Source: Giardia intestinalis (taxonomy: Eukaryota). From it: 64,000 nucleotides of DNA. The stretch lies in the NCBI GenBank assembly GCA_000002435.2, contig CM018793.1. One strand, 5' to 3'. The position numbers and the translations under genes were made by a program. The number at the start of each line of letters is the position of its first letter. The stretch's first letter is position 1. The notes below the pieces were generated by a model, which saw only the letters and a program-made list of their open reading frames with translations, ran no database searches and had not been told where the DNA came from. Of the stretch, positions 10,525 to 38,151 are shown piece by piece.

Positions 10525-11265
10525 GGGCGTCTGGTCGACCTATGCTGTCGCTTGCCTTTTTTTGCGCTAAAGTGTTCTGGATGGACATCAATAGGTTTCA
10601 ATACAGTGGCTGCGATTGAGCTAGCCGAAAGGTCACTAAAAGGGAGACGTGAGAAAGTGCTGAAGGTAATCGGTAGCCTGCCATAAAGCCGCCAAAGAAA
10701 AAAAATCCAGAGATGGCGTATGTTTCATTGCTCGTTCCACCCGACGTCTAACACGCAGAAAGACAGAGAAGCACGCTCCCGTTGCACGCATCTCCCCCAA
10801 GAGCGTCTTTCGCGCGTCCTTTATCTTTATCGGCATAGTGCTTTCATTGCACTTTGCAACGGCACTTGTAACGAAAAAGTAAATCGAGGCTGCTAAAACA
10901 CAGGGCTGCACAGCATCCTTGCACCTGCGTAGCCGATAGGTACGGGTGACCGTTTATCCCGGGCTCGTGTGGGCCCGGGTAGGCACGGTCAAAGAGTTTC
11001 CTTCATTCAATTTTTAGATCCATCTGGCGCACGTTACGAGGCCTGGCTCCCGGTCCGGCCCTACCTTGCGTGCGCATATCTCCGGGATCTGCGCCGCGTC
11101 TGCTCGCGGCGATTTCGGTTATGCCGGCCCGAACACTCCTTCATTCAACAGGCCCGGAAGAGCGACTTCACCCGAACAGCGGCTGACCAGATACAAAGCA
11201 GGATGGGGTATTTACACCATAATCTACACAGACGATCCATTAGTGAGCAAACTCCTGGGGCGAGC

Positions 11266-12369: not shown

Positions 12370-12717
12370 TTAAAATTCTAGGGTTAATTTTTTCAAATTT
12401 TTCCATTGCACTTTGGCCATAATATGCATTTTTATTTTGATTTTCAATTGTATTTTAGATGTACGCCTCTTAGATCGGAGGGATGGTATGCAGGGTTGTT
12501 TAGAAACCAGCTCGGCAAACTCAGAAAGAAATAGAGAAAAAGATCGGAGAACTTATAACCAGGGGCTGCCTCGGCGTTGACTCTATTACAAACAGATCGT
12601 GCTCGGCACCGCACATTCTACCCTCTTCTTTATCTAAACACTCTAGCCCTAAACGATGTTGTAGAGTAGTATTATAAGGTATAGTATTAACTTATCTGCG
12701 TTTAATAAATTTAGGTT

Positions 12718-15700
12718 ATGATTTCGTGTCCCTCTGACATTATTCTCATGGAGCCGAGGGGACTGGCCGCCTACTTTCAAAACATGGGGGCTCTATGTGG
12801 ACTTGCAGACAGTATTATCTACTCTGAGGTGTCTGGGGCCATGTTTGCCGCGATGACTCCTGAGGCCTTTCTAACGGCACTTAACAGGCCTCTGGACCCC
12901 TGTGTGCTTAAGGAGTTGCGGCTGATCCAGAGCCTTATTCAGCAGAAGATAAAGGATAGCGTGCCTTCGTTTTTGGACAGCGTTTGCAAAGGTGTTATCC
13001 TGGGATGCTCTCCCACCCTCAATACTGAATGCAATGGTGATTCATCTGGTGAAAACATAGCTGACCTCCGGAGAGACTGTCCCTCATTTGGGGACGCGCC
13101 CAGATCTAGTCGATTCTATGAGATAGCAGTGCTTGGTTGCTGGAACAGTTCTATTTTGTGTGTTCCAGTCGACACCGTTGGATGCTACTTAGATGAATGT
13201 AATTACCCTAATCACCCGTCTCCTTCTATGCTCCCTCGCGGGTCTCTAGTCGACATTGTACTGAAGAGTGGATGTTCTGCCAGGTCTTCGATTGATACCG
13301 ATAATATAAAATTAGTTATTCCTTGCTCTAACACGTGGGAGGCGTCTCTAATGGGGCTTCTTTCCATGGTACATGACTATCTGAATACTGCACGGAAAGC
13401 CACCCACCCACCCTTTCATATTGGGATGTATTCGGCTCTTCCGTTCGCCTCGTCAGTCAGTCAATCTAGTAACCATGATGGTAATGTACTCACTACAATA
13501 ACTCTGGCGGATGTTCTAGAGTCCCCGGAGGCTATGTCCCAGGAACACACGTCCTACATGGAGCAAACTGCGTTTAGGTCTATCGACGAAGATATAGCGT
13601 GCAACAGCAGCTCACACGATGGCCTGTGTAACCCTAACGCTGATCAATGTACGGATTCTCTCAAACCCGTATCTGCCCCAAGCCCGATTGAATATGAGCC
13701 TTTGTCTCCACCTTCAGAGCAGCTGTTTCCAAGTTACCTGTTCTCTAATACTTCAGGTGCCTATAAGGAATTATTTGGCAGGCTTTCAGCCAGCGCGTCT
13801 GGTGAGATCCCATGCTACACTGACATTTGTGCTACTGGGATACCTCCATCCGGTTTCTATGCCCCTCTTCCCCAGTCTTCTGGGGTGTCTATTGGTATGC
13901 ATAAAAGCCTTTCTGACATGCCTCTACCATTCATGAACGCTCCCAATATTCTTCTACCTAATACAATCGCTAACGCCCACGTGAACAATAGGCTGCTTAG
14001 TAGTACGATGCAGTGCTTTAATGGATTTATTTACAAGTATAACCCTATGCTGGTCTTGCCCCTGTCCACTCGTTTCCGCGGAAGGATAGAGTTCATCCAG
14101 GACGGATACGGTTGTATAGTGTGTCCCCCTTTCAGCAAGCAAAGTCAAACAGCCCAGAGCATACCCACCTTCATGAATCCCGAGTTTGTCATGAGCGCAG
14201 AGAAGGCCGGGTGCGCCAGTATGCGAAAAGTGTTCCAATCGCTCGTGAACATTCCCCAGGATGTCCATAGCATGATGAACTATTCTCCACCAAATATCTC
14301 CTCGCTAAGCTCCTTCAATATCGCTGACGGGCTGTCGCTGTGCTGCTTCTTCGCAGCCCCCTGGGTCCAGACATCCCCTAACACCCCTGACTGTTCACTG
14401 ATAAGAGGGGACATTGTTGAGTTCAATCTTATACACGGGTATGGATATCTAGACGAGTATGCCGTCTATGGGAGTGCGAATCAGCCATTCTATCCGCTTG
14501 TCTCCAATGCAGCCCTAGAAGCTATGGCTAAACACGGTGGTCGTTTGGCCAAAGGGAAAGGAGAAAAGCAGCGCACAGAGAAGAAGAAAGGAGACGAGGC
14601 CCAGATGAAGCACAGTCTCTCAGCTCCTGCCGTCTCCACGAACCCCCTTATGAAGTTTAATCGAGCTGATCTCACCGACTACTATTTCCTGCATCAGTCA
14701 ACGAGTAATACCGCTGAGTATATCACGCTTCTGGCAGACAAGATTACCGTGGTCAAAAACACCCGTGTAACCAAATCACAGTGGCACAGCCTTCTCGTTG
14801 ATGGCCACATATATCAAGGAATTGTCTACACTTTCAATGAAGCAGAAAATTACGGATTCATTAAGTCCTACGGTAATCGTATGCAGGCAGGAACGCTGAG
14901 TCAAGGCATAGAGGTTTATTTTCGTCCCTCTCCTTCTAGTACCTGGAAACCGGAAAGAGGGTGCTTTGTTTCGTTCAAGGCGAAGTGGGTGGATTCTAAG
15001 GCCCAAGCAAGAGAGGTCAAGCCCATCTATAGCCGCACAAGCAGCTTCTTCTTTGGGCAGTGCCTGGGGGTCTTTCCTCCTTTTGCTATAATCAGAGCAG
15101 TGGCGCATATTGAGCACAAGATGAGCACGGAGAAATACGGCTTTTCCGGCCGCACGGTAGACTTTCTGCAGTGCCGTGGTCTCTTGACGGCAGGGGCCGA
15201 TCCAGAGCCATATGTCTATGATGGTCAAGACCCTTCGTTCTCTTGCAGAAAGATAGACCCGTATTGGGCCAGCGATGTTTACTTCGTCCGTACAAAGACT
15301 CTTGCTCAGGCGCTCAAGATATCCCTCGGGGTGGGCTCCTATGTCGGGTTCAACATCGACCCTGACATTAGCACGCATCTGCGAGCAGTCAATCTGTCAG
15401 TAATTGACCCTAGTATTTTCACTGATATCCTCAGCTATATTCAAAGGTACTCATCTAATGCCATTATACCTTCCCTCCGACATTCTGTATTAACGCAGCA
15501 GTCTATAGAGAAACTACCGTGGTCCCTTAACTTCCACATGCCAACCAGGGCAGAGCCCACTCCGTTACGCGCCTTTACATTCCACCTTGAGCTTGGCTCG
15601 CTGCAGGCAGTGTTCCAGGAAGGGACACTCCAGGATACGGGCTTTCTTCACAATTGTCAAATCAGGCTATCGTCTAAGTACGACACTCAGCTTTTAACGA

Positions 15701-16221
15701 TTCCATTGAATAGCGTCTTGAGACCGCTAGAGGTTGCTATTCCTTCCTCGCAATATGTATTTGTATGCTCAGAGATAGACTCTACCAACGTGCTGCCTAA
15801 TCAGCTCTATGAGCTGGGATATTCTAATACACTGTTACCGAGCACGTCCCCTCAGACCCATACAATAAGTCTAGCCCTACTTGTGAACTCCTCCACGACT
15901 TGCTATGCAATGCAAGTGTCCTACATAACTGATGAGTACGTCATCCTTAATAGCTTGACGATCAAATACGATACCTGTACAGCAGCGGAGTACGTGGAGC
16001 CCAGCCTCTTCTATATAGGAGTACCCAGATCAACATACCCACTGGGGTACATGTTCTTCGGGATGACGGTATATCTAACGGTATTGTCCACTAAACCGGA
16101 GCAGCTAGCCAACGGTCTAGTGCTTGGAAAGCTGTTTGCAAACAGAGATTATATATTAGTAGTATTTATTCTGTCTTCCGTTGACATAGAAATTACAGCA
16201 CCTACTCAAGCGCAGAGTTGA
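12718..16221 (+). CDS. large hypothetical protein (1167 aa), no recognisable domain
   Basis: Long uninterrupted ORF with Giardia-like composition, divergent from the 11266..12369 gene across a 350-bp AT-rich promoter region. No motif recognised by eye. Confidence 0.5.
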   Translation: MISCPSDIILMEPRGLAAYFQNMGALCGLADSIIYSEVSGAMFAAMTPEAFLTALNRPLDPCVLKELRLIQSLIQQKIKDSVPSFLDSVCKGVILGCSPTLNTECNGDSSGENIADLRRDCPSFGDAPRSSRFYEIAVLGCWNSSILCVPVDTVGCYLDECNYPNHPSPSMLPRGSLVDIVLKSGCSARSSIDTDNIKLVIPCSNTWEASLMGLLSMVHDYLNTARKATHPPFHIGMYSALPFASSVSQSSNHDGNVLTTITLADVLESPEAMSQEHTSYMEQTAFRSIDEDIACNSSSHDGLCNPNADQCTDSLKPVSAPSPIEYEPLSPPSEQLFPSYLFSNTSGAYKELFGRLSASASGEIPCYTDICATGIPPSGFYAPLPQSSGVSIGMHKSLSDMPLPFMNAPNILLPNTIANAHVNNRLLSSTMQCFNGFIYKYNPMLVLPLSTRFRGRIEFIQDGYGCIVCPPFSKQSQTAQSIPTFMNPEFVMSAEKAGCASMRKVFQSLVNIPQDVHSMMNYSPPNISSLSSFNIADGLSLCCFFAAPWVQTSPNTPDCSLIRGDIVEFNLIHGYGYLDEYAVYGSANQPFYPLVSNAALEAMAKHGGRLAKGKGEKQRTEKKKGDEAQMKHSLSAPAVSTNPLMKFNRADLTDYYFLHQSTSNTAEYITLLADKITVVKNTRVTKSQWHSLLVDGHIYQGIVYTFNEAENYGFIKSYGNRMQAGTLSQGIEVYFRPSPSSTWKPERGCFVSFKAKWVDSKAQAREVKPIYSRTSSFFFGQCLGVFPPFAIIRAVAHIEHKMSTEKYGFSGRTVDFLQCRGLLTAGADPEPYVYDGQDPSFSCRKIDPYWASDVYFVRTKTLAQALKISLGVGSYVGFNIDPDISTHLRAVNLSVIDPSIFTDILSYIQRYSSNAIIPSLRHSVLTQQSIEKLPWSLNFHMPTRAEPTPLRAFTFHLELGSLQAVFQEGTLQDTGFLHNCQIRLSSKYDTQLLTIPLNSVLRPLEVAIPSSQYVFVCSEIDSTNVLPNQLYELGYSNTLLPSTSPQTHTISLALLVNSSTTCYAMQVSYITDEYVILNSLTIKYDTCTAAEYVEPSLFYIGVPRSTYPLGYMFFGMTVYLTVLSTKPEQLANGLVLGKLFANRDYILVVFILSSVDIEITAPTQAQS

Positions 16222-16347
16222 CGCAAAGCGCAGGTGCCATCGGTTAATGATTAGTGTCTAGTGAATTGATTCTTCAACCCCTACCCTTTCCACTATCGAG
16301 TCGAAATATCATGCTTAGAACCTGGCTATGATAGTGGCTGGCATCAG

Positions 16348-16959
16348 CTAACAGTAGCACCGTGAAGAAGGAGGAGCTATCTCGAGGTCCTCAAGGGAAA
16401 GGACAGACTTCGGCATGCTGCTGGCCATCTTGCGAGCAATGATTGTGCTCATTTCAGCTATTACTTGATTGGTGCCAATTCCAGTGAGGCCACAAATGAA
16501 GAATATCGGAGAGTCATAGAGCGCAGCGAACGCCCGGGCCTCCTCATGAGTTACAGCAATCTTGTGATTCAGCTCTGCTAAGTCACACTTTGTCGCCACG
16601 AAAATAATAGAGAGATCCGGTTCCAGCCCAAGAACCTTCTGCACATACTGCGAGGCCGCCACAAAGCTTGGCCTGGAGACGAAATCGAAGACTACCAGAC
16701 ATATACATGCGCTCTTGTGCGCTAGAGACGAGACACCTCCCATATATTCGCCCTTCATTGTGTCCCACAATCGGATGCTCACGGTTTCGCTTCCGACACG
16801 CAGGCGCATACTGTGGATGTCTACGGTCTCGGTTGTATCTCTGGGTGGTCTGTTGTATGCAAGAGAATGAACAAGGGTGGTCTTCCCGCAGCCCGCCGAC
16901 CCCACCACACTGACTTTGTACCGCATGGCTGTTAGGATTTTTTGTGTCTCAAGCGCCAA
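16348..16959 (-). CDS. Ras-superfamily small GTPase (Rab-like, atypical G3)
   Basis: 203 aa with a G1 motif VVGSAGCGKTT, a WDTMKGE motif in place of WDTAGQE, a G4-like ATKCD, and a C-terminal ...RCYC di-cysteine prenylation-type motif as in Rab proteins. Confidence 0.65.
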   Translation of the reverse strand: MALETQKILTAMRYKVSVVGSAGCGKTTLVHSLAYNRPPRDTTETVDIHSMRLRVGSETVSIRLWDTMKGEYMGGVSSLAHKSACICLVVFDFVSRPSFVAASQYVQKVLGLEPDLSIIFVATKCDLAELNHKIAVTHEEARAFAALYDSPIFFICGLTGIGTNQVIAEMSTIIARKMASSMPKSVLSLEDLEIAPPSSRCYC

Positions 16960-16982
16960 AGGGATTTACTAGCCGGGTTCGC

Positions 16983-17831
16983 CTAGACAATATTAGCACG
17001 GCAGCGGTCTTTTTCTGCAGCGGTGATCGTTTTCAGAAACTGTTCAAGGCTTTCTTGAGCATTGTTTGTGTGCCTCTTCTTTTCAATCTCCTCGCCGATC
17101 GCCTTAAGTTTAGAGCCAGCTTTGCCGAGCTCCTCGCCAGTGACCTTGCTGGCCGTGATAAGGCCCTGAAGGACTTCCCAGTCAAGGGTTTCCATTTGAT
17201 TGCGTAGGCCAACGAAGCGCTTGTTGACGTCAGCAAGTTGCTCAGTGATTTCTTCGCTCTTCTTCTCGAGTCTTGCTTTCTCCTTAAGAGTGCTACTGGA
17301 TGGCTCCGATCCGTCAAGCTTATGAGAAAGAGTCGTCATTGCCGTGTTGGTTTTGTGCTTGTCGCTGTCCAGCTTTGCCCGCTCCTTGAAGGACTTATCC
17401 ATCGTTGCCTTGAGAGTCGCAAGTTCTTTAGTATTCTCTTTGTATGCGTCTTCTAGCTTTGAAATAGACTGGGCCTCAAACTGTTCTGAAAGCTTCTCTA
17501 AAGTTTGGCAAACGGAGCTGCAGCTGTCTGCTATAAAGTTCTCGCTGAACGGTAGGGTCTTTGGATGGGGTGCAACAGACGCGTCCACTAGCTTCTGGAA
17601 GTCCTTGGTATAGTGGTCAAGGGCGGCCTTAAACTCCTTCTGGAGATCGATGAGCCACTTACAGTTGGCTAGGCTATCGGCAATATGCGTTAGCCCCTCT
17701 CCTTCCTTATTCTCAAGGGCAGTCTCATATCCAAATGTCTGCTTGCTTGGCATTTTATTAATCAATTGTGGGTATGGCCAGTGCAGTACAGTACCGTTCA
17801 ATCCTCTCTTGACAAAGGAGTTTCCCGGCAA
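16983..17831 (-). CDS. coiled-coil hypothetical protein (282 aa)
   Basis: K/E/L-rich heptad-like sequence throughout (KLEDAYKENTKELATLKATMDKSFKERAKLD...). No catalytic motif. Divergent from MBF1 across a ~270-bp AT-rich region. The start could be an internal Met. Confidence 0.45.
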   Translation of the reverse strand: MPGNSFVKRGLNGTVLHWPYPQLINKMPSKQTFGYETALENKEGEGLTHIADSLANCKWLIDLQKEFKAALDHYTKDFQKLVDASVAPHPKTLPFSENFIADSCSSVCQTLEKLSEQFEAQSISKLEDAYKENTKELATLKATMDKSFKERAKLDSDKHKTNTAMTTLSHKLDGSEPSSSTLKEKARLEKKSEEITEQLADVNKRFVGLRNQMETLDWEVLQGLITASKVTGEELGKAGSKLKAIGEEIEKKRHTNNAQESLEQFLKTITAAEKDRCRANIV

Positions 17832-18102
17832 AACACAATCTACCGGTTCGTTAGAGTTTATGCCTTGACGCTCTAATGCTTGATCTGATTACAGTAAATA
17901 TTTGTGACGTACACTTTATAAGATATATGAAATCAATGGAGTTAAAGAAGTGAACTAAGAGGACTAGCCAGCATTCGGATTCTGAAGGGTCTCACAATAC
18001 CAAAACTTGGCGGCTTGTTCCAGAATTATGTCCAATTGTAATTAAAATTACGACAAATGCGATAAAATATTGAAGACCTTTGTTTTCAAGACCTGGTGAC
18101 AA

Positions 18103-18426
18103 ATGTCCGAGTATCGTGACTACGTAGTCCGCTACAAGAAGCCAACTACAAACAATGCAAACAAGAAGCCGGCAGGAACTTACGACAAAGATCCCGGAGA
18201 CAATGCATTCGGCCCCAAAGCTATCGAGTTTGAAGTGCGTCGCAACCTGGAGCGTGCACGTGCCGCGAAGGGCATGAACAGAAAGCAGCTAGCTGATGCA
18301 GCGTATATCAAGGAATCGCAGCTCGCAGCTTGGGAATCCGGCTCTGCTCCCATTCCTGATGCTGTCATTCCTAAGTTGGAGAAGGTCCTCGGTACAAAGC
18401 TAGTCCCAGAGAAGGATAAGAAGTAA
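18103..18426 (+). CDS. MBF1: multiprotein bridging factor 1 (MBF1/EDF1) transcriptional co-activator
   Basis: 107 aa. The C-terminal HTH region RARAAKGMNRKQLADAAYIKESQLAAWESGSAPIPDAVIPKLEKVLGTKL matches the MBF1 helix-turn-helix (ARQAKG.TQKDLA..I.EK..VI..YE.G.A.P...VL.K.ER.LGVKL). It also has the basic N-terminal MBF1-type segment. Confidence 0.85.
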   Translation: MSEYRDYVVRYKKPTTNNANKKPAGTYDKDPGDNAFGPKAIEFEVRRNLERARAAKGMNRKQLADAAYIKESQLAAWESGSAPIPDAVIPKLEKVLGTKLVPEKDKK

Positions 18427-18642
18427 GGGCTTGTGCATTGCTACTACTGAGTCTACTTGAGGGTGGATGCATCTACACTCTGACTTCGGCTTTGATCTTT
18501 CAGACACCTCAAAGGCTGTAACTGTGTAAACAGATGCGCTTTCTTGCAGAGATAACCCCTTACAAAGTCTGCCTATGAATGCCTTGTCCTTGCTCACATG
18601 TAACAGAACGGCTTAGTCAAGAGGCCATTGAATAATTAAACC

Positions 18643-21600
18643 ATGAGAGGCTTCACGTTCAGCGTCGGCGGGGGCTGCCGGAATGCTCCTGTCGACTTTG
18701 GACCGTGTAGAGCAGGGACTTCCACGGTGATAGAGGTTCTCTTTAGCTCCACGCTCTCTGTAAGCGTTAACGTTAGCATCTCAAATTTGCCACGGCACAT
18801 TGATGCTGTTCCCAAGCAATTTATTCTCAATCCCTCGAGCAAGATGAATGTGAAGTTCACATGGGTCTCAAAGGATACTAAATTTCAAATCCTCAACGAA
18901 ACTCTGAATGTTGAAAGCCAGAAGTCAGTGCAGCACCTTGTGCTCTTGGGCTTAGCAACTGAGAAGGAACTGAACATCTTTTTTTCGGCATCCAATGAGA
19001 AGCTCTACTTTCGTATTTTGGGTCGGCCCGAGACTTTCTTTGTCCAATCTCCTATTTTTGAGGACACAGCGGGCAGCGAGGCCTTTATATCACGAACTGC
19101 TTTGGCTCAAAAAGGGACAGACCCATTTGTGCTACTCAGCGATAGGGCCATATATGATAAAGTACTACACCACGGCTCCAACATTCTCAACAACTTCACT
19201 AACTCACTCCTACACACCTCATACTTGGCTGGGTATGAAGTTTTTCAGGCAACCTTCTTGAGGGACACCCTCCCCAACATTCTTATGACTGCACACAGAA
19301 GATACAGCCAAGCGATACCGGCAATACGGCGTAAGATTACCTTTAGAGGAGACATTTCTGCCCCTCTCGATCAGCAATGTAGATCCATGCTATCGCTAGC
19401 TTTGGAGTCCATCGACGGGGCGATTTTCCGGTTAGTTTGCGATTGTTTGTATAGGCCCCAGCCCAATCTTTTCGCCCTCTTTGATTTGCCACAAGTGCGT
19501 ATTGCAGACATCCTGCTCAAGTTGCAGCAATCAGAGATAGTGAAGCAGCTCTTCTGTAGGGGGTCAGCTGGGCTACAGAACAGAGCCCTCAGCATAGAAG
19601 ATCAACGGGTGAATAAGACTCGGAACTGTAACCTCTTTATCGTAGTTCTCTGCTTTATCGATCTATCTCTCATAGTGTATAAAGCATCAGGAATACTCCG
19701 GCCCCTGCAGCACCACGTGGAAACTGTTGCAGCGACAGGAAAGCGTAGTAGTATAACGCAAGCAAGAACGTTGACAGAATTTCTCAACTCGTACTATACT
19801 ATAATTGGCTCAACTGGGGGACTTAGCACAATTTTAAATGACCTAGGATTTAGTTGGTTCAATCAGTCGATAGAACAGCCTCACCCTATTTCCTCCATAA
19901 GCTCACCACTTAAGAATGAAAACATTGCTAACTTCAGGACTCTTCTCCCCCATCTGCTTCTCTATATGTCGAGGAAACGCGAGTACTGCCCAGGCGCATT
20001 AAAGATACCTGCAGAGACGTATGAAGAAATAATAGAAAATATGCGGATACTTATATCCTTCTGCTGGCCACACAAGCTTGTCCTCGAGGCATCGAAGGGA
20101 CTCAACAAAAATTTGGCATCTCTCCCATCTTTGACGAAGACAATGCTGAATAAAATAATATTAACCATCATCAAGGAGAACCAAATGGCTGGACTTTTAT
20201 GTTCAGAAAAGGTCTTCTTGGCCTGCCTCAATAGTACAGTGGAAACCTCTATGATTAGCATCTCCTGTCAGCAGATATTTAAAAGATTGAAGTACGTTTT
20301 CAACCCGTCTAATAGCCCTATTGTTCGAACGGTTGATCGTATGTACGACGAGTTCAGGCGTAAGCAGGAAGCATTGACTCGTTCCTCTGTTATGCTAAGC
20401 AATGCCAGCGTGCTGGATATCATCATATCCGGGTCACAGGCACACCCCTCCTTCACCGGAAAGAAGCATCGTACGCTTCTGGCCACCCTGGAGCGTCACC
20501 TCAGTTCCCACAGATATTCAGAATTTCTATTGCTTGCTTTGCAAATGGTCGCGTTAGTCCATGGATATGATCTAAACGGTGTAATATTTGACCCGCGGGA
20601 TTGTGTCAACAACGGCCTTCTTTTGATAATGATAGCTCGTGTTATTCTTCCCACAGGAAGACGGATATTTCCAGGCAAGACGCTCTGGAAGTTTAACTTT
20701 GCAGGCACGTTGCAATCATCCATGGTATTATCCACGTACAGCGAACCAGAGTGTTACAACAATGATGATGTTAGTGAGCCTGAAGATGGGTTTAGTTGTT
20801 CTCTCCGTAAGAGTAGCACGACGGATCCTTCTGGCTGGGATGATACCAGGAGTTCTAAATTTGAGCGCTTCAGCTCCACGCGGATTGCCACTTTGTCTGA
20901 GAAAGAACCAACCCTTTCGCAAATCATCATGCAACAGCAAGAGCGCGATGGATATGTGAAGCCAGAGCATAATGTTCTCAGGCTCGCCGACTTCTATAGC
21001 TGCCACTTGGCGTTTATCTCTGCACTCGAGCGCTACGAAGAGCTACTACAAAAGTGGGACTATAGTCTCTCCCTTGAGGTTTTTGCTAACAGACACTCTA
21101 TCCTTCGCGTTTTGCCCAGCTTCGTTTATTCTGATAACATCCGTGAACGGACGCGATATAGTTTTTCACTATTTAGATTGATTGATGCCTACACACGTAG
21201 TATGGGAAGCACACTTCCTAATACTAGCATGTTGTCATACTACGTATCAATTCTGTTTGTTACTGCACTTGTTTCCAATGATTATTGTCTGACAGGAGAC
21301 ATTAAATTAGAGCTTCTGCACATTTCACCTGAAGAACGCGACTATCAGAACCTTCTAAACAAATATGCAAAGAAGACAGAACAATACAGAATACGGACCC
21401 GTGTAGACCGCCGAATAGCAGCCATTCAAGCGTCATGCAGAGGCTTTCTTGCCAGACAGTACTACCGACGTGTTCGGTACAGCGCACTTGTCATCCAACA
21501 CATGTGGCGTACAAAGCTTTATCACTTCGAAAAAGGCTACCTTCTTACGGCACAGGCTCGCCGAAATCTCTACTTACGAGCTCTTCTCACACATGAGTCA

Positions 21601-24600
21601 CGCCCCCAGGATGATATATTTAATACTGAGCCTGGAAAAAGAGTCCTGAAGGCTGTTTTGTCCATTCAACGCTATGTCAAACAGAGAGCTCTTAGAAGAG
21701 TGATGCCTACAATTCAGATATATCTTGCAACAAAGCGACGTACCCTTGCAAGTCACACAACTATGCAGGCAGTTCGCGTCTTGCAGTACCACATGCTAGC
21801 ATACAGTCTGCTATCCTTTCTTAGGCTTTTGGCGGATGCTGAGCGCATCTTTAAACTTTCATGGAGTGACGTAAAGCTGTTTTTGCCCACTGCTTTGCGT
21901 GGCTCACTCTCGTTGGCAGAGTCTTGTGATCTATTGGAGCTACAAATCACAGGTACTGCCACCTCTCCGAATACAAACAGATTTACTAACCTAGGATTTT
22001 CCACGCAATATTTGCACATAGGACCATACCTATCTATTTCACGCAGCAAAGCACAGCTCGAGGAGTACATAGCACGTATTTCTAGTGTGGGGACAGTGTT
22101 TCGCGCTAGTTACGCTGGGTATATAGTTAGAAGGACTCTGGCACTGATGCTCAGCAGGGCATCTTCTTATCCGCATCAGAGCATAAATCACAAACAGAGC
22201 ATCTTTTATGGCGCGCGCTGGATGCAGTATCATCCTGCAGACGTTCTACATGTATTACTCAGTCGCCAGTATTCTGTGGAGAACAGAGAGTATGTTCTTA
22301 GCGCATACATAGCTGAATACCATGGTCTTCTATCGAGTGTGTTGCTCATTCAAGCATTTTTCAGGGGCACAAAGGAGCGACTTCGTGCCAGGGTTCTTCA
22401 GGCGATTGTTAGGCAGATGATAGGCACTTCCAATCTACAAGACATTACTGACTCTTTTTATATATTTGTCCTTCGTGAGGCAACAAGGAGTGTCGGTTTG
22501 TTAGAAGCTGAAGCACTAAAAAAGCTAGGTAAGCGTTTAACTGTGGATCAGTACATTCAGATGATAACTTTATTCATGGATACGCTCTTACTGCGAGTGT
22601 CTAGGATACAAGCAGCGTTTAGAGGATGCAAGTTACGGACTACGCTTTATCGAATTCGGTGTGCTTGTTGCAACGACTTTATACTCATGCGCTTTGCCAT
22701 TTCCAACGACTTCAACTACTATGCGCTAGTTGATGCAGAGATGATAATTTTACGGTGCATGAGAAGACATCGCCAACGAGTCCTGGTTGCCAGGGCCATT
22801 CAAGCGGCTCCTTCTGCAGTAAAGCTGTTCATAGACGAAGCATCTCTTCGAGGCATCCAGACAATCGCTGATTTCAACGCTTATCAAGATAGGATACTTC
22901 GCGCAGCAACCCTTTTGCAATCTATGGTGCGCATGCTCATAACCATAAGGAACATTAATTGTGTCATGACGGTAAGCCCAATACTGCTCAGATATCCAAT
23001 AATTTGTGATGGTCTGTTGCTACCAACCGTTATCTTTCGCGAGGTTATGCTCAAGCATGTTATTGACAATACTGTGCGTCTACAGAGCTGCGCACGAGGA
23101 TATAGAGTTCGACTACGCCAACAACTGCTTCATTTACTTCTCGAGAAGATGCTTGGTATCACATGCTCAACCTCTTTTCATCATGATACTGCGTCGCGGA
23201 TCAAGCAGATTGTAATCCGTCGACTAGATCTAGTTACGTGCAGCCCTAAGGATATTCTTGAGCATACCGATGGTGTTTCCAGGTCTGTGGTTATTCTCCA
23301 GGCTCACATCCGGGGATGGGTTGTGCGTAGAAACTATAGGGATGGTGTACTAGTTTCTGTGAGAATAATTCAAAGGGCAATAAAGACTTATCTACACAAC
23401 TTATTTACTAAGCTGGTGAAAAAGCATGATACACTTTTGAATGACCTTCCACTTCTTATTTCTGTTGGTATAGTTAGCCAAGATATTGACGTAGGACTTC
23501 GTCGAGATATACCCTATCTTTCCGCTGGTAGCCTTGCTATGCTACAAGATACGTGTGACAGACTCTTATGCGCATTAGCTAGTTTTCGTGGAGTGGTTGT
23601 CAGGCTAAGGCTACGAAGGCTCAGGGATATATCTACGACACAGTGTATATTTAGAATGCTATGGCACCAAGCTTCTGTGCACGATCAGCTTCCACCGTCC
23701 GTTACCTCTACACTCAAGATTTACGGTTTACTAAATAGCAAATCCATCATTCTTCAGACATACATGCGTCGCCGCTTAGTGCACTTGAGACTAGGCTTAA
23801 TACAGCACCTAACCAATAAGCTGGTGAATTTAGAGATGCAGTCACAGTCTTCTGTGGCGCGTTTCGTGAAGCAAACCGTTCTCTATGTTGCGTTGCAGGC
23901 GGGTCTTACTGATGCAGCCATTTTCGATGCACTCGATGCGACTACTGAAAGCATAACTCTCATCCAGCAAACTATCAGACGGAGAGTGCTTATACGGAAT
24001 ATAGGTCTATTGAAAATTATGCACCTAACATTCAGCAATCTGTCGCCTCTACCTTTTCACATGATAATTCAGTTTTTTAGAAACGTAGCAGCTGACCGTC
24101 TGCTGTGGACGATTCGCAGTAGAAAACGCTCCACTGCAATATTGTATATTATAGACAAGAGTTTGGAGCGTGTACAAGCCCGTGCTCTCAGTTATCTCGC
24201 TCTTCAGATGCAGCACACCTACAATCGTCTGGAATTGGATCCTATTCTTTACGATTTGTTGTGTGACCCCAACGTGCAAAGCAGTAGTGCGTTACAGAGG
24301 GCTTATGAAGAGTTAGATAGATCAACACGCATGATACAAGCCTGGCTTCGGGGGTGCAGGGCTCGCCGGCTAGTGTCCACTTGCCGGGCGACATTGCTTG
24401 CTCACTGCAGCCATGTTGATTCACGGTTACAGAGGATCCTACTCCACCATTTGCACAGGTGTGAAAATCAGCTAGAAAGCGTAGAGTCTGTTGTATTGAC
24501 TTTGGTGAGTGCAGCGACTTGCATTCAGCGATACTATCGTGGCTGGTGTGTACGTTGGACTCTTAAACGCATTGCTCCATCACTAGCCTATTTAATGCTT

Positions 24601-27600
24601 AATAGAGGTTTTCTAAGGACTACAGACGCTTGTGCTAACTTCTATAATAGTATCCTCAAGGCAGTACAGATAATACAGCTACACGCGCGATTATTTCTGT
24701 GTGCGCAATCCTCGGTCCAACTGGCTCAAATCAACATGCTGCTGCAGAATGATGGCAGTGTTGATCTTCTGGACTATCTGTCCTCCAAAGACACCACTCG
24801 AAAGATCTCAAGCGAAGAATTATGGAGAAAGGCTCATGGTCTAAAAGAGTCCTTTACCTATCTGCAAGCATTCATTAGATGCTTTTTGGTACGAAAGTCG
24901 GTCCTTGCTTTCCGTTCCTTGTGTATTTACTTCGGGCTCAATAAGGTATGCCCTAGTCTGCTACTTGAGCTAGCTAGGAACGCGAGTGGCATGCTTTTCA
25001 GTGATACACGTGTCTTGTGTTACCCGTCTCGAGTTGAACCATCGCTTAAGTGGATCAGAATTGCTAGTGACATAATCCTACAGCGACTCGTACTTCACCA
25101 AAGAGGTGCCACCATTAGATTACTTAGAAGCTTCCCCCTTCCGGCCTGCTGTTACGTCCATAGGTATATTGATGGTACTAATCCGAGACTTATTCTCAGG
25201 CCGGATAAATGTGCAGACATTGCAGCCCAACTAATGCACTCTGCAACAGTAATTCAATCAATGTATAGAGGTTACGTCACGCGAAAAACGATAAAACATG
25301 TAGTAATGTCCTGCAAAGGAGACACTATTCTAGCACAAACGCTACTTGATAATATTTTCGTGGCGGCGTCAAAACTCTCTTCTAATGCCTCTTTAAAAGC
25401 ACGCTCCATGATATTGTTTTCAGCTAGTGTGGATGTTGCCGAGCAGGTGCTAAGTTCAGCGGCTCTTGTAATTCAGCGCACGTTCAGACTTAGAATGAGG
25501 AACAAGAGACTTAGTATAGCACGGTTTTACGGAGAAAAGTACTTCTCTGTGGAAGATCTGAAGGGAAGAGACGCGTTCAGACACCGAGAGCTTGCTCTTC
25601 TACGTGGAGCCACTACTATCCAATACCATTATAGAAAATACTCCTTCTTGGCCCATCTGGCCCAGTATACTAAGGGAGATACACGGCTGATGTCCATTTT
25701 CTTATGGAACTTGCAGCAAAAGCAGTCATTAGACGGATTTACTGGCAACTTGGCTTATAAGCAGTGTCTCTTAAATATGCAGCTAGTAGGTGCCCTTCTC
25801 AGTTCTGCCGCAGTAACCATTCAAAAAAGGTGTAGAGGATACATGGTGCACAAGATTTATCTGACTCTCCAGCAATGCCAGAATATAGGAATTTATCCTT
25901 GGATGATACTGAATCTCTTGTCTACTGATGCTAGCAATAAGCTGATATACTCATGCATCACCGATAGCATCCATGTTGTGTCCACTCGTGTAGCTTGCAT
26001 TCAGGCCTACGCACGAGGCTATATTCAACGAGCCTCTTCAGTCACAGTTGCTGCTGGATACAATCTATTTTTAACACAGCAGGAAAAATTATCTGGGCCA
26101 GCTGTTATCATGCGTGTGTGTCGCGCTATAGATGCCGCCGAAAAGCTTCTTTCTGCACATGCAAAGTCATACCTCATACGCACTAGACTCGATTGCCTTC
26201 GCAGATACTCTGCAGTTCCCCCGCCCGATCAGATTGATAGCATTCTAACAACGCGGATCAAATTTCAAAATTATTTACTGATTGTCGTGGCGACACTTAC
26301 AATCCAGTGCCACAGTCGTGGCTTTCTCGCTGTATGTTCTCTACGTCAGGCCGTTCCTCGGGGAATGCAGCTTTATCTTCCGCAAGCCCTAATGACCATC
26401 CCGTCTAAGTGTGCTCTCTTAACCGATATTATTATTAACTTAATTGTGCATATCCAAACTAGTACACGAAGATATCTTGCTTCCAAGTCTATGGGCTATA
26501 TACTGAAACACTTAGATAAGAAGACCTTCAACCTATTCTTCACAGCATCAGATCTACGACTTCCCAGTGCTGTTCTCGATAAGATTCAACTCATCTTGAG
26601 CAGCGCGTCGCTAATTGCCATCAGGGGGAGGGCATTTATCACCAGGAAAACATACCTCTATGTACAGATGTCCGGTTTATTAAAATTTCTTCCCGCTACC
26701 TTCGCCTACTCTCATTACAGTCGTGCCATCGAGTACATAAAAGATCTGTTTCATTGTATTCTTCTTATTCAGGCAGGAGCACGTGGATTCTTTGTGAGGC
26801 ACAAGATAAAGACTATAAAGGAGGTAGTGTTAGAATATGGAGCTACACTTGATTCGCTTCTCCTTCAGCTTATCTGGGAGCGAACAGTTCCTAACCACTT
26901 CAATAGTGTGACGACATATTCTGATAGTTATTATGAAAGATTCGATGTAGGTAGTGCTAGTAATAATGCACTCTCAGTGTTCGACGCAGCAGCGCTTATA
27001 GCCCATTCGGCCATATTAATACAGAAGTACTTTAGAGGTTATGCAGCATACACAACTGCATCTTTGTGTAAGAAGTTCGGTATACACTTTACATGGAATG
27101 TTGACAAAGGATTTGGAGGAGGGGTCGTGGTTATACAATCTGCCATTAGAGGGTGGAATATACGAGTCATGCTCGCGAGCATGGACGTCTGGGAGCGGAG
27201 CCTTTTTCTATCTAAAGGAGCGCATTTACATCTTCACTGCCCCAGCCAGTTAGCTGTCTTTCGAGCCGAAATTAATGAGGCAGCGTTGACATTGGGAAGG
27301 ATATGCAGAGGATTTATTATTAGATCAGAGTCAAGAGCGTTTAAGCATGCCCTGGGGAAGATAAGGCACAAGCCTACACGACGGGCTTTTAAGAGTACGC
27401 TTGAACCTCTTAGCATTCATCTGAACATAAAGGCTGCTATGCAGGAAGCAACAAGATTTTCTGCAGCATTGCATATACAGGCACATTATCGAGGAAATAA
27501 AGACCGCGCAAGCATTCCCCAAAGACTTTGGAGGAAGATACAGCACATACGTGAGCGGCTTGCCGACAGCTTAGCCCATGGAGACAAAACAAAAACAGTG

Positions 27601-28218
27601 GCAAAGCAAATACTAATACACAAAGCAATTCTTTTCAAAGCAGAGCATCCTCACAACAATCCGCGATCAGTAACGAAACTTAATTACTTTTGCAACCTAT
27701 ACTCCCCATCGGCGGGGTACATATTCAGTAGAGATTTCTGCGATATTATCATTGACGTAATAGGATCCACAATTACAACACCTGTGTTGCAGCAATACAA
27801 TGTATTCAGAGATGGATGCTGCCTTATCACAAAAATGCTCACGTATAATCCACCTACATGCAAGTTTGATACATTGAACCTAGCAAATTTCCAGGAGCTT
27901 GTCAAAGTCTCCTCGCCTAAAGTACAACATGCATCCGCAAAAGTGCCGAGTCCTTATGCTCTAACACCAACCTCAATTAAACCCTCATTGATGCGGCTTC
28001 CTGATACTCTCATCAATGCAATAGACTTTAACCGAGAAGATGGAGATATATGCGCAGACGCAGAAGAGCTGCTATGTACAATTATGCGATGTGCTGAGCA
28101 GAGTGGTTATGATAAATCTTACTTCATTTCAGAGTGCGAAAAGCTGGAGGAGTTGCATGAAGCAGGTCTTTTGAAAAGCTCACTGGGGATTTGCTCATCA
28201 AAAATATGCGATGCATGA
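18643..28218 (+). CDS. giant IQ-motif protein (3191 aa) with an ASH-like N-terminal domain, ASPM (abnormal spindle)-like
   Basis: Uninterrupted 9.6-kb ORF. The N-terminus (FTFSVGGGCRNAPVDFGPCRAGTSTVIEVLF...NVKFTW) fits the ASH/MSP-fold pattern. More than 15 IQ-type calmodulin-binding motifs (IQxxxRGxxxR) are spread over ~2000 aa, for example IQASCRGFLARQYYRR, LIQAFFRGTKERLRAR, RIQAAFRGCKLRTT, ILQAHIRGWVVRRNYR, CIQRYYRGWCVRWTLKR, VIQSMYRGYVTRKTIK, TIQKRCRGYMVHKIY, CIQAYARGYIQRA, LIQAGARGFFVRHKIK, LIQKYFRGYAAYT, VIQSAIRGWNIRV and HIQAHYRGNKDRA. An AT-rich initiator (gaataattaaaccATG) lies upstream. Confidence 0.6.
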   Translation: MRGFTFSVGGGCRNAPVDFGPCRAGTSTVIEVLFSSTLSVSVNVSISNLPRHIDAVPKQFILNPSSKMNVKFTWVSKDTKFQILNETLNVESQKSVQHLVLLGLATEKELNIFFSASNEKLYFRILGRPETFFVQSPIFEDTAGSEAFISRTALAQKGTDPFVLLSDRAIYDKVLHHGSNILNNFTNSLLHTSYLAGYEVFQATFLRDTLPNILMTAHRRYSQAIPAIRRKITFRGDISAPLDQQCRSMLSLALESIDGAIFRLVCDCLYRPQPNLFALFDLPQVRIADILLKLQQSEIVKQLFCRGSAGLQNRALSIEDQRVNKTRNCNLFIVVLCFIDLSLIVYKASGILRPLQHHVETVAATGKRSSITQARTLTEFLNSYYTIIGSTGGLSTILNDLGFSWFNQSIEQPHPISSISSPLKNENIANFRTLLPHLLLYMSRKREYCPGALKIPAETYEEIIENMRILISFCWPHKLVLEASKGLNKNLASLPSLTKTMLNKIILTIIKENQMAGLLCSEKVFLACLNSTVETSMISISCQQIFKRLKYVFNPSNSPIVRTVDRMYDEFRRKQEALTRSSVMLSNASVLDIIISGSQAHPSFTGKKHRTLLATLERHLSSHRYSEFLLLALQMVALVHGYDLNGVIFDPRDCVNNGLLLIMIARVILPTGRRIFPGKTLWKFNFAGTLQSSMVLSTYSEPECYNNDDVSEPEDGFSCSLRKSSTTDPSGWDDTRSSKFERFSSTRIATLSEKEPTLSQIIMQQQERDGYVKPEHNVLRLADFYSCHLAFISALERYEELLQKWDYSLSLEVFANRHSILRVLPSFVYSDNIRERTRYSFSLFRLIDAYTRSMGSTLPNTSMLSYYVSILFVTALVSNDYCLTGDIKLELLHISPEERDYQNLLNKYAKKTEQYRIRTRVDRRIAAIQASCRGFLARQYYRRVRYSALVIQHMWRTKLYHFEKGYLLTAQARRNLYLRALLTHESRPQDDIFNTEPGKRVLKAVLSIQRYVKQRALRRVMPTIQIYLATKRRTLASHTTMQAVRVLQYHMLAYSLLSFLRLLADAERIFKLSWSDVKLFLPTALRGSLSLAESCDLLELQITGTATSPNTNRFTNLGFSTQYLHIGPYLSISRSKAQLEEYIARISSVGTVFRASYAGYIVRRTLALMLSRASSYPHQSINHKQSIFYGARWMQYHPADVLHVLLSRQYSVENREYVLSAYIAEYHGLLSSVLLIQAFFRGTKERLRARVLQAIVRQMIGTSNLQDITDSFYIFVLREATRSVGLLEAEALKKLGKRLTVDQYIQMITLFMDTLLLRVSRIQAAFRGCKLRTTLYRIRCACCNDFILMRFAISNDFNYYALVDAEMIILRCMRRHRQRVLVARAIQAAPSAVKLFIDEASLRGIQTIADFNAYQDRILRAATLLQSMVRMLITIRNINCVMTVSPILLRYPIICDGLLLPTVIFREVMLKHVIDNTVRLQSCARGYRVRLRQQLLHLLLEKMLGITCSTSFHHDTASRIKQIVIRRLDLVTCSPKDILEHTDGVSRSVVILQAHIRGWVVRRNYRDGVLVSVRIIQRAIKTYLHNLFTKLVKKHDTLLNDLPLLISVGIVSQDIDVGLRRDIPYLSAGSLAMLQDTCDRLLCALASFRGVVVRLRLRRLRDISTTQCIFRMLWHQASVHDQLPPSVTSTLKIYGLLNSKSIILQTYMRRRLVHLRLGLIQHLTNKLVNLEMQSQSSVARFVKQTVLYVALQAGLTDAAIFDALDATTESITLIQQTIRRRVLIRNIGLLKIMHLTFSNLSPLPFHMIIQFFRNVAADRLLWTIRSRKRSTAILYIIDKSLERVQARALSYLALQMQHTYNRLELDPILYDLLCDPNVQSSSALQRAYEELDRSTRMIQAWLRGCRARRLVSTCRATLLAHCSHVDSRLQRILLHHLHRCENQLESVESVVLTLVSAATCIQRYYRGWCVRWTLKRIAPSLAYLMLNRGFLRTTDACANFYNSILKAVQIIQLHARLFLCAQSSVQLAQINMLLQNDGSVDLLDYLSSKDTTRKISSEELWRKAHGLKESFTYLQAFIRCFLVRKSVLAFRSLCIYFGLNKVCPSLLLELARNASGMLFSDTRVLCYPSRVEPSLKWIRIASDIILQRLVLHQRGATIRLLRSFPLPACCYVHRYIDGTNPRLILRPDKCADIAAQLMHSATVIQSMYRGYVTRKTIKHVVMSCKGDTILAQTLLDNIFVAASKLSSNASLKARSMILFSASVDVAEQVLSSAALVIQRTFRLRMRNKRLSIARFYGEKYFSVEDLKGRDAFRHRELALLRGATTIQYHYRKYSFLAHLAQYTKGDTRLMSIFLWNLQQKQSLDGFTGNLAYKQCLLNMQLVGALLSSAAVTIQKRCRGYMVHKIYLTLQQCQNIGIYPWMILNLLSTDASNKLIYSCITDSIHVVSTRVACIQAYARGYIQRASSVTVAAGYNLFLTQQEKLSGPAVIMRVCRAIDAAEKLLSAHAKSYLIRTRLDCLRRYSAVPPPDQIDSILTTRIKFQNYLLIVVATLTIQCHSRGFLAVCSLRQAVPRGMQLYLPQALMTIPSKCALLTDIIINLIVHIQTSTRRYLASKSMGYILKHLDKKTFNLFFTASDLRLPSAVLDKIQLILSSASLIAIRGRAFITRKTYLYVQMSGLLKFLPATFAYSHYSRAIEYIKDLFHCILLIQAGARGFFVRHKIKTIKEVVLEYGATLDSLLLQLIWERTVPNHFNSVTTYSDSYYERFDVGSASNNALSVFDAAALIAHSAILIQKYFRGYAAYTTASLCKKFGIHFTWNVDKGFGGGVVVIQSAIRGWNIRVMLASMDVWERSLFLSKGAHLHLHCPSQLAVFRAEINEAALTLGRICRGFIIRSESRAFKHALGKIRHKPTRRAFKSTLEPLSIHLNIKAAMQEATRFSAALHIQAHYRGNKDRASIPQRLWRKIQHIRERLADSLAHGDKTKTVAKQILIHKAILFKAEHPHNNPRSVTKLNYFCNLYSPSAGYIFSRDFCDIIIDVIGSTITTPVLQQYNVFRDGCCLITKMLTYNPPTCKFDTLNLANFQELVKVSSPKVQHASAKVPSPYALTPTSIKPSLMRLPDTLINAIDFNREDGDICADAEELLCTIMRCAEQSGYDKSYFISECEKLEELHEAGLLKSSLGICSSKICDA

Positions 28219-28311: not shown

Positions 28312-31300
28312 TCAGTGTGGTATACATAGAATCTCTAAGATTTTATTCTCCACGCTTCTATCACCATGCGATGCTTTGTCAACAGCATATCTTAGTGCCT
28401 TGTTCCCCTTATTATCCTGTATTAGGATCTCTCTGGCGTAGAGAAGCTCTACACATTCAGGGTGCCCATGCATACAAGCGTACATAAGTGCTGTCCGTCC
28501 TGCATTGTCCTGCATACCCCCTTCTTGATCTAATAGTAAACTAACTATTTCGTTACATCCAGCAGCCGCAGCACACATCAGTGCAGTTCGTCCTTGCGCA
28601 TCTCTACACTTAGACTGGTATTTTGATAGGACTAATGCGGCATTCACATTGCAATGTTCTGCAGCGGACATAAGCTCTGTGAACGCGCACACACCTGCAT
28701 TAGCAGAAGTAGAGTTGGCCAGTGGTTTTTCTACTGTACGTAGAAGCGCTGCAACGGCTGTATTACCGCAAGCTTCTGCAATGTCCAGCGCACGCATCCC
28801 GTCTTTTCGAAACATGCAGGCTTCGTCTTTGAGAAGAAGCTCAACCACATTTATAGAGTTATGCTCCGCAGCAACCATCAAGGCTGTTGTGCCATCGTAT
28901 CTAGCCATTCCCGCGTAACGCATATGCTTATCCACCTTTTCAGAGTCGTTTTCTGCTGCTGCATGCATAAGTGGGGTAGTTCCGTCCGCTTCTATCTTCT
29001 CGTATAAATTGGACTGCAACATAGACGAGCCCGTTCGTGTTGTAGCTAGCATGGTTGTGGTCAAGATATCTGTGTAATGCATACTATCCTTGAAAGTTCC
29101 TTGGGCAGATGTAGTGGGAGCCCCTTGCTTTAGCACTTGCTGATCAAAGAAATTTCTGCCCACAGATTGCGTTGATGGAACTGGCTCCTGAGGTTCTGCT
29201 TCTGCTTTGAGCGCATCTAATGTGTGAACAGCTTCAGAGGGCACGCAAGAAGAGACAGGCTGGATACGCACACGTTCAGAGCTTGATGGTCTAGTAGTCG
29301 ATAGAGTAGATTGGTCTAGGGCAGAAGTAAGATCCTCAGTCAGGCAACCTGTCTGCTCAAGCTTCGAGAGCCGTATTTTGCTATTAAGAATTTCGTTCAT
29401 TAGTTGCTCGTTTTGCTTTCGACTCTCCAAAAGCTTTCCCCCTAAATCCTCACATCGTGAGAGAAGCACCCTGTACGCTGGATCCGCTAAATACCCACGC
29501 TCTTGAATATCTCTTAGAATACCAAGCTTTTCAGCATAGACGCTTTCGTTGTACCCACGCTTAATATTGTTCTGTTCCAGGCTAGCTGTCTTTTGCAAAA
29601 GGATGTCGTGCTTACATTGAAGGGAGGATAGCTCTGCCTTTACTAGCTGCAACTCAGCGCTTTTGTCTAGATCCATAGCTCTTTCTTCCAACTGGCGATG
29701 AAGGTCCCTAATTGTTGCATGAAGAGTGTCGATATTTTCAGTGTGCACTCGTTGTTCCAAAAGTTTAGATTCTATGTCGTGCAGACGATCTAGTTCTTTC
29801 TTCTGTTCTTCACGAATTTGTGAGCTAGCTTGCAAGACTTTGTGCAGACACGAAATCGTAAATAGGGCGTTAGAAATGCTTTCATTCCAATCCTTGTCTT
29901 CGTCCAGGTAGACAGAGTCAGACGTATCTTTATTTGCAGTCTCTATTTGAGTCTTGTAAATTGATAGCTCTCTAGATTTTGATAGTGCAAGAAGCTTTTG
30001 CTTTATGTTCTCGTAGTGCAGCTCCCGCTGGCTAGCGCGCTTTAGCTGTTCGTGCGAGGTCTTCAGTCGTTCCACGAGCTCCTTTACTTGACTTTCCAGA
30101 GCTTCTGTCGTTTTAGAGCTTCTATGTCGACGTCGTGTCGATGTCAGTGACGTCTGAGTGACATTTAGACTGTGCATAGTACTCTGATAAAGACTATGCT
30201 CATCTACGTGCGGTACACAGGGCTGGTGTGAATTAATCACTGAACCAGTTAAGGTAGATAGGTCACAATCAGTGATGTTATCTGGCAAACATTGTTGGTT
30301 GGGAATCGACATGTTTGATTGAGTTTGTAGCTGAACAAGTTGTTGCTTATAGTCTTCAACGGATTGCTTTAGCTGAGCTATAACCGTATCTTTTTCAGTA
30401 ATAATGGACTCGTAATCCGATAAAGCAGTGACAAGCCGCAAATTCTCTTGCTTAAAAAGCTCCAATGTATTATCTGTCTGGATGTCTGATTGAATGGAAC
30501 GCTCACAGACATCAATCAACATACTTGTTTGTGTCTCACAGTCAGCCTTTCCTCGCGAGTTCACAGAATAGTGTGGTGGATGTTTCCTCTTGATCTGTTG
30601 GGAACTCAGAGAAGCCTGATGCAAAATGTGTTGTCCTAAAGAATTCAAGGATGGCCTTGCTTGAGAATATGAAAAGGAGCTAGAATGCAAAGGCACCTCA
30701 CGGATTTTGGGGCTCTCTTTTCTATACGAAGCCGGCCTAACTGGGTGAGTACCTTTGGAACCAGAGCTTGCCAAACTCTCGGGGTCGAGGCGCCGTACAG
30801 AAATGGCTCCCAGTTCAGAATTAAAAGAGCTCACAGGTGTGCTTAAGCGGGGGTCGGTGAAACTGGGAACAGCTGACAGTAACTTATCTACTTCATTGGA
30901 CAAATCGTCCATACTGCTATAGTACCGCTGCGACGCATCATCGTATAGGCTCTGCAAGAAGGCTAACGTTTCCTTATTCTTGCAGCACTCCATGGCTTTG
31001 GCAACGGTTTTCCTATCTGGAGAAAGCAATCTACGCAAAACACTCACTGATTCTAGACTGCCAGCTATAGCGGCCTGATCCAGGACAGTATGACCAGTTC
31101 CATCACTGCAGTCATGAATATACTGGTGAAGAATTGGCAAGACCCCGGCTGATCCACTACGCGCTGCTACATGCAGTGCTGTAAGCCCATCTGGAGATAA
31201 AATATCATACTCTGCTGCCACAAGAAGTTCGCAGCACTTGACATGATTGTTGGATGCAGCAAGCAACAATGCTGTCTCTCCGCGCCTGTTAATATGCCGT

Positions 31301-38139: not shown

Positions 38140-38151
38140 ATGTACTTAGGT

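Follow-up and report, generated by a model that had tools for sequence, protein, structure and literature searches.

Does Giardia possess a counterpart of ASPM? The question is raised by GL50803_113219, a gene encoding a protein of 3191 amino acids that lies within a 64,000-nucleotide stretch of the Giardia intestinalis genome (GenBank assembly GCA_000002435.2, contig CM018793.1), referred to here as the window. The Giardia cell assembles two spindles and eight axonemes, besides a median body and a ventral disc, without myosin and, to our knowledge, without many of the canonical centrosome proteins. A sequence-only reading of the window had proposed that the protein, taken to come from a diplomonad and not known to have been characterised, was ASPM-like and might be an orthologue of ASPM, with an ASH-like N-terminus, an array of more than 15 IQ motifs and no visible myosin motor. 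Following up this proposal, we find that GL50803_113219 is a real, uncharacterised and conserved giant Giardia gene, that profile comparisons identify the N-terminal domain of its product as a genuine ASH domain of the ASPM type and that the IQ sites of the central region are under selection. The further step, from these features to descent from ASPM, is in our judgement evenly balanced.

The gene and its family

GL50803_113219 (GL50803_00113219) occupies positions 18643-28218 of the window on the plus strand, where it forms a single unbroken open reading frame (ORF) of ~9.6 kb that is complete with 3191 codons and a TGA stop. No second ORF of at least 150 amino acids lies within or overlaps this interval. 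Its translation matches P0006 (XP_001704110.1 / KAE8304842.1 / UniProt A8BZ05) from G. intestinalis WB at every residue, which bears out the ORF, its stated size and its proposed diplomonad source. The product appears in databases as an "uncharacterized protein" or as an "IQ calmodulin-binding motif-containing protein", and the library of papers that we searched contained none on the gene or on any Giardia ASPM, in agreement with the earlier impression that it had not been characterised.

The start codon deserves comment. Directly 5' of the ATG, on the same strand, the sequence reads aataattaaacc (18630-18642), an A/T-rich stretch that may be an initiator of the Giardia type. An in-frame TAA is found 6 nt 5' of the ATG, inside or beside this stretch, and position 18643 is therefore the first possible start. 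In the automatic calls of many public assemblies the start is placed 28 codons downstream (skipping 18643-18726 of the window), giving 3163 amino acid versions of the protein such as P0001. Conservation with G. muris and with the distant relative P0021 extends to these 28 residues, among which D18, F19, G20 and P21 are invariant, and they contribute to the ASH match described below. For this reason we consider the ATG at 18643 to be the better start.

Searches with the full-length protein returned Giardia proteins only: near-identical copies from assemblage A, orthologues at 86% (P15), 72% (GS-type) and 68% identity, and G. muris proteins at 31–34%. A HMMER search of 1.84 billion representative proteins with a profile built on residues 1–925 again recovered only Giardia-type proteins, with the addition of one full-length relative. 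This protein, P0021 (3453 amino acids, from Logan assembly SRR31929897), is the most distant member of the family at 26% identity. Full-length orthologues of 3023–3453 amino acids are thus represented in six lineages (four of the G. intestinalis type, G. muris and P0021), down to 26% identity, whilst two scans of JGI metagenome contigs, for which full-length and C-terminal alignments served as queries, added no further relatives. As far as these searches reach, the family appears to be confined to Giardia-type organisms and to be old enough for its members to have diverged to 26% identity. The P0021 gene itself is located at 10001-20362 of locus L001, on a compact 30-kb Logan contig (SRR31929897) with diplomonad-like gene spacing. 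Its neighbours encode a DM10-domain protein, LMBR1, Nop53, ribosomal protein S23 and TPH, a gene order that is not shared with the Giardia window.

The ASH domain and the IQ sites

The ASH domain, an immunoglobulin (Ig)-like beta sandwich, spans residues ~8–98 of the protein (18664-18936, plus strand), as placed by Pfam and by hhalign profile–profile alignment. The Pfam ASH model (PF15780) matches residues 8–98 over profile positions 5–96 of 98, with a score of 15.8 bits (E 0.016), and is also the top family in G. muris (19.7 bits, E 9.7e-4) and in P0021 (24.5 bits, E 3.1e-5), although all three scores fall below the 27-bit cutoff of the family. The remaining weak Pfam matches at the N-terminus all belong to the Ig-like ASH group (the CFAP74, Hydin/CFAP65 and Cep192 domains). 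Matches to the ASH clan are found at residues ~8–98 only: Pfam detects none elsewhere along the 3191 residues, nor elsewhere in P0021 and P0005.

Comparison with ASPM itself gave a clearer result. As query we used the pre-CH and first calponin-homology (CH) regions of human ASPM (pre-CH/CH1), in a sequence 99–100% identical to the human entries in the database. It yielded 79 ASPM fragments, from animals and also from the stramenopile Tetraparma, and PF15780 is present at the N-terminus of several of them. A profile of real ASPM ASH domains aligned by hhalign with residues 13–80 of the Giardia-family N-terminus with a probability of 94.5%, an E value of 7.5e-8 and a score of 48.1. In a second run the score was 45.9, compared with 11.5 ± 2.1 (maximum 18.3) in 200 column shuffles, a separation of ~16 standard deviations. 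A low-confidence AlphaFold2 (AF2) model places beta strands at residues 15–94, followed by helices only. It is because three lineages are concordant and because the profile–profile result agrees, rather than because of Pfam scores that taken alone lie below cutoff, that we assign this domain to the ASPM type; the ASH-like N-terminus that had been proposed is upheld.

The central IQ region extends over ~2040 residues (920–2960; 21400-27522, plus strand) and carries 29 IQ or IQ-remnant sites, located by the Pfam IQ model and by motif position. Pfam IQ (PF00612) matches 15 stretches of the window protein (110.2 bits, E 5.1e-33, cutoff 20.3), and the G. muris and P0021 proteins also exceed the threshold, at 92 and 41.5 bits respectively. 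Complete IQxxxRGxxx[RK] motifs number 12, compared with 0.015 ± 0.12 expected from 2000 residue shuffles (maximum 1), and the looser [ILVM]Qxxx[RK] motif occurs 29 times, compared with 5.3 ± 2.2 in residue shuffles. At 24 of the IQ cores the Q and the R/K at +4 are kept in at least five of the six orthologues, with position conserved down to 26% identity. The claim of more than 15 IQ motifs therefore holds.

The pattern of conservation across this region is informative. IQ cores make up 17% of residues 926–2950 yet hold 60 of the 137 invariant columns (hypergeometric p 3e-14), and the cores are 41 and 29% identical to those of G. muris and P0021, respectively, compared with 25 and 20% for the spacers. 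Taken together, these results indicate selection on the docking sites themselves. No larger repeat unit was found in the region by self-BLAST, and the spacers are neither repeats of one another nor decayed IQ units, as judged by self-BLAST and a hidden Markov model (HMM) of the IQ segments. As Giardia lacks myosin (PMC2375034), the sites cannot be a myosin neck, and a large share of the IQ motifs in the Giardia cell is probably carried by this protein. From the motif, each site would be expected to bind one EF-hand light chain.

A possible ASPM counterpart or independent scaffold

Human ASPM is described as consisting of four parts, in which a microtubule-binding domain at the N-terminus is followed by two CH domains, 81 IQ repeats and a C-terminus conserved between species (PMC10436222). 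ASH proteins cluster at the centrosome, cilium and Golgi, and in Drosophila Asp the ASH domain lies within the region that binds microtubules (PMC4094338). ASPM with both ASH and CH domains is also found outside animals, in the stramenopile Tetraparma (P0076), which makes an ancient origin plausible.

In GL50803_113219, residues 140–700 (19060-20742, plus strand), delineated by alignment of the orthologues and predicted to be all-helical, lie where ASPM has its pre-CH and CH region. They form the best-conserved long stretch of the protein, being 46% identical to G. muris and 33% identical to P0021. It is followed by a variable Ser/Asp-rich linker, residues 701–757 (20743-20913, plus strand), that is probably disordered, showing 21–24% identity with indels among the orthologues and no secondary structure in either AF2 model, and then by a conserved helical region, residues 758–919 (20914-21399, plus strand), that lies just 5' of the first IQ site in the alignment and is 36–38% identical to the distant orthologues. 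In all, conserved helical sequence extends over ~800 residues, broken by the linker. Downstream of the IQ region, the alignment defines a conserved C-terminal domain, residues 2962–3191 (27526-28215, plus strand), predicted to be helical. This domain is 40% identical to G. muris and 30% identical to P0021, and contains family-invariant motifs such as NPRS..KL, LY.P and PD.LI.AI.

A number of results weigh against an origin from ASPM, the first group of which concerns the CH domains. In six orthologues, Pfam gave no match to PF00307 or PF11971 (CAMSAP_CH) at E values up to 10, and an HMM of the ASPM pre-CH/CH region gave negative bit scores on all six N-termini. Alignment by hhalign against ASPM pre-CH/CH1 produced scores of 17.5–18.1; the top alignment (Giardia 231–471 with ASPM 112–330), at 18.1, is at the level of shuffled controls (18.0 ± 3.0 for column and 17.9 ± 2.8 for block shuffles), with greedy and global modes in agreement. 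When residues 758–919 were considered as a candidate second CH domain, the hhalign scores against ASPM CH2 were 11.4 and 12.5, compared with 13.2 ± 2.3 in shuffles. Structure prediction supplies no evidence, the AF2 models having mean pLDDT values of only 32 (residues 1–925, 5 sequences) and 37 (residues 361–930, 6 sequences); Foldseek searches of the PDB with these two low-confidence models, in which no match reached an E value below 0.3, carry no meaning. Neither the N-terminal nor the middle alignment matched any PDB sequence in profile searches, and Pfam found nothing in residues 361–930 of six orthologues or, in the window protein only, in residues 141–500. Collinear motifs noted by eye, in which Giardia residues 165–470, 625–672 and 780–880 appeared to resemble ASPM pre-CH, CH1 and CH2, were rejected, with HMMER negative and hhalign no better than shuffles. 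By Pfam, HMMER and hhalign alike, then, CH domains appear to be absent from GL50803_113219 or to have passed beyond recognition.

In the C-terminal domain, too, no similarity to ASPM was seen. Its comparison with the human ASPM C-terminus gave an hhalign score of 16.8 (P 0.13) and 2 bits with HMMER, using a comparator checked only over its overlap with P0038 (52% identity over 149 residues). The domain has no Pfam match and no PDB sequence match, and its profile recovered a Giardia fragment only, with no outside homologue, in a word-indexed protein search. A motif match seen by eye between the Giardia and ASPM C-termini gave no signal on testing and was rejected. Reciprocal retrieval failed in both directions: the full-length and N-terminal queries recovered no ASPM and the human ASPM CH-region query recovered no Giardia protein, within the limited sensitivity of the word index.

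The layout of the IQ sites points the same way. In human ASPM the IQ units abut one another, and they are contiguous in the ASPM fragments that we retrieved (P0075, for example), with a unit length in ASPM of 23–27 residues. In the Giardia protein the spacing ranges from 23 to 159 residues with a median of ~65, and only two pairs of sites are separated by the myosin/ASPM distance of 23–24. The description of these sites as an array therefore has to be withdrawn, as they are scattered rather than tandem. Finally, ASH domains occur also in Hydin, CFAP65/74, CEP192, OCRL and TRAPP subunits, and the CFAP74 Ig family matches the N-terminus weakly in all five of the members scanned (E 0.003–0.03).

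Where does this leave the proposed orthology? The outcomes named in advance as refuting the proposal did not occur: the IQ motifs exceed the Pfam threshold, ASH is the top N-terminal profile and there is no myosin motor. The architecture may fairly be called ASPM-like. The ASH and IQ parts of the proposal stand, whilst the step to orthology is not established, given that no CH domains were detected, that the C-terminal domain shows no similarity to that of ASPM, that reciprocal retrieval failed and that the IQ sites are sparse. GL50803_113219 is laid out like ASPM, but we do not file it as a member of that family because tests for CH domains and for reciprocal retrieval were negative and the comparison of the C-termini gave no clear signal; the sparse IQ layout is a further difference. 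We see the arguments as equally poised for and against its being a very divergent ASPM counterpart of this lineage, one whose CH domains have been lost or eroded beyond recognition. Of the readings considered, this is the most likely.

The alternative that survives best is a scaffold of independent, lineage-specific origin, combining ASH with a long series of IQ sites, that would serve a flagellar or Giardia-specific structure (an axoneme or central-pair-like complex, the ventral disc, the median body or the funis) as a calmodulin/centrin-like docking platform. We regard this as credible, if somewhat short of an even chance. It would fit with a family confined to Giardia-type organisms across 1.84 billion representatives and two metagenome scans, with the lack of a CH domain and of similarity to the ASPM C-terminus, and with a sparse, non-tandem IQ layout unlike that of ASPM. 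The weak Ig matches at the N-terminus, to Hydin, CFAP65 and Cep192 as well as to CFAP74, can also be read in its favour, as can a PDB sequence-profile search with the ASH alignment that returned Hydin chains only, none of them significant. It sits less well, however, with PF15780 as the best family in three lineages and with the strength of the match to the ASPM ASH profile (E 7.5e-8), or with a domain order and size equal to those of ASPM. Moreover, central-pair ASH proteins have many tandem Ig/ASH domains, whereas GL50803_113219 has one, and we know of no other described family in which many IQ motifs accompany one ASH domain at the N-terminus.

It is highly improbable that the protein is related to, or a relic of, another IQ or light-chain-binding family, either a motorless myosin or an Sfi1-like centrin-binding filament protein. 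The only PDB sequence matches to the whole protein are to myosin IQ necks, albeit at non-significant E values of 0.05–0.95, and the many light-chain sites recurring regularly along a long protein recall Sfi1 (PMC2063913). The motifs themselves are canonical IQxxxRGxxxR rather than Sfi1 repeats, however, and neither family is known to have an ASH domain at its N-terminus. Pfam finds no Sfi1 family match at E values up to 10 and no myosin head, in line with the absence of a visible motor remarked on at the outset and with the absence of myosin from Giardia (PMC2375034). At the level of sequence, an origin of this kind is effectively refuted. That the ORF is not a functional gene at all, but a chance ORF, pseudogene or mis-assembly, is scarcely credible: we found no support for it beyond the caveat of the 3163 amino acid calls with their start 28 codons downstream, and it is contradicted by an uninterrupted 9.6-kb frame, by full-length orthologues in six lineages, the most distant at 26% identity, in which selection centres on the IQ cores, and by the conservation of the first 28 residues as part of the ASH match.

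As to function, GL50803_113219 probably serves as a scaffold that carries calmodulin-type light chains on microtubule structures. We infer that its ASH-containing N-terminus would take the protein to spindle poles, basal bodies, axonemes or the median body, and that one calmodulin or calmodulin/centrin-like EF-hand protein would be docked at each of the IQ sites. The loaded molecule could then act as a large multivalent scaffold, possibly Ca2+-responsive, that links or focuses microtubules, by analogy with the Asp–calmodulin complex that acts at Drosophila spindle poles (work cited in PMC10436222). Judged on its domains, GL50803_113219 would be a concrete candidate for a part in microtubule minus-end or basal-body organisation and in the calcium control of the Giardia microtubule cytoskeleton. 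More tentatively, it may exemplify an unrecognised type of giant scaffold in Giardia and its closest relatives, with an ASPM-type ASH head, no CH domains and ~24 widely spaced IQ sites, each conserved in its own right. In a cell that lacks myosin, such a scaffold would provide the main multivalent docking surface for calmodulin or centrin-like proteins on the unusual microtubule arrays (spindle poles and basal bodies, median body, axonemes), whether as a radically remodelled ASPM or through convergence. If the protein is a true ASPM orthologue, then the family reaches the metamonads and its CH domains are dispensable or replaceable; if not, the combination of ASH and IQ arose on two occasions. 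In both cases there is room to improve on the annotation "IQ calmodulin-binding motif-containing protein".

Genomic neighbourhood and comparison with known systems

The genes around GL50803_113219 are typical of Giardia, encoding VSP, annexin E1, ankyrin-repeat and EGF-like cysteine-rich proteins. Convergent with the IQ gene, and with only 93 nt between the two stop codons, is a gene for a 1055 amino acid ankyrin-repeat protein (28312-31479, minus strand; Ank_2, 204 bits, 7 stretches). Beyond this, at 32363-33604 on the minus strand, is encoded a 413 amino acid annexin (alpha-giardin / annexin E1 type) that contains the 'Annexin E1, fourth repeat' domain specific to Giardia; annexin E1 is associated with the flagella and median body, according to a review (PMC3499766).

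The annexin ORF runs into a perfect (100%) inverted repeat (33438-38687 / 40281-45530) with arms of 5250 nt and a spacer of 1593 nt. Each arm carries an identical 769 amino acid VSP gene (35830-38139, plus strand, and 40829-43138, minus strand; 769/769 residues, Pfam VSP E 4e-217), and the GC content of the block is ~0.58–0.60 compared with 0.44–0.47 in the IQ gene. The repeat could be the result of recent duplication, gene conversion or assembly collapse. As its left arm begins inside the annexin ORF at 33438, a partial second copy of the 5' part of the annexin gene should lie at ~45365-45530. Elsewhere in the window are found genes for a 1677 amino acid EGF-like cysteine-rich protein (891-5924, minus strand) and a 652 amino acid HEAT-repeat protein resembling the A subunit of PP2A (7820-9778, plus strand), together with a 1167 amino acid ORF with no Pfam match (12718-16221, plus strand) and a 2077 amino acid ORF with a sub-threshold bromodomain match only (46030-52263, minus strand; 19.8 bits, cutoff 21.7).

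How does GL50803_113219 compare with systems that are already known? In common with myosin necks and Sfi1–centrin filaments, it would carry several EF-hand light chains along one polypeptide, and myosin necks have exactly the same IQ consensus. Unlike these, it has neither a motor nor Sfi1 repeats, and long non-IQ spacers separate its sites. Hydin, CFAP74, CFAP65 and the calmodulin-binding C1d complex offer a second comparison, as proteins of great size that occur in flagellated cells and are linked to calmodulin. GL50803_113219 resembles the central-apparatus proteins Hydin, CFAP74 and CFAP65 in possessing an Ig-like domain of the ASH type, as reflected in its weak Pfam matches, but these proteins have many tandem ASH/Ig domains and no long IQ series, whereas it has one ASH domain and ~24 IQ sites.

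From ASPM, the Giardia protein differs in having no detectable CH domains, in a C-terminal domain with no detectable similarity, in the failure of reciprocal retrieval, in its ~24–29 scattered IQ sites as against up to 81 abutting units, and in belonging to a family restricted to Giardia-type organisms. What the two have in common is a single N-terminal ASH domain, with significant profile–profile similarity between the Giardia domain and those of ASPM, a very long IQ-bearing centre and a conserved C-terminal domain without IQ motifs. The parts are arranged in the same order, from ASH through a helical region and IQ sites to the conserved C-terminal domain, in proteins of 3191 and 3477 amino acids, respectively (PMC10436222).

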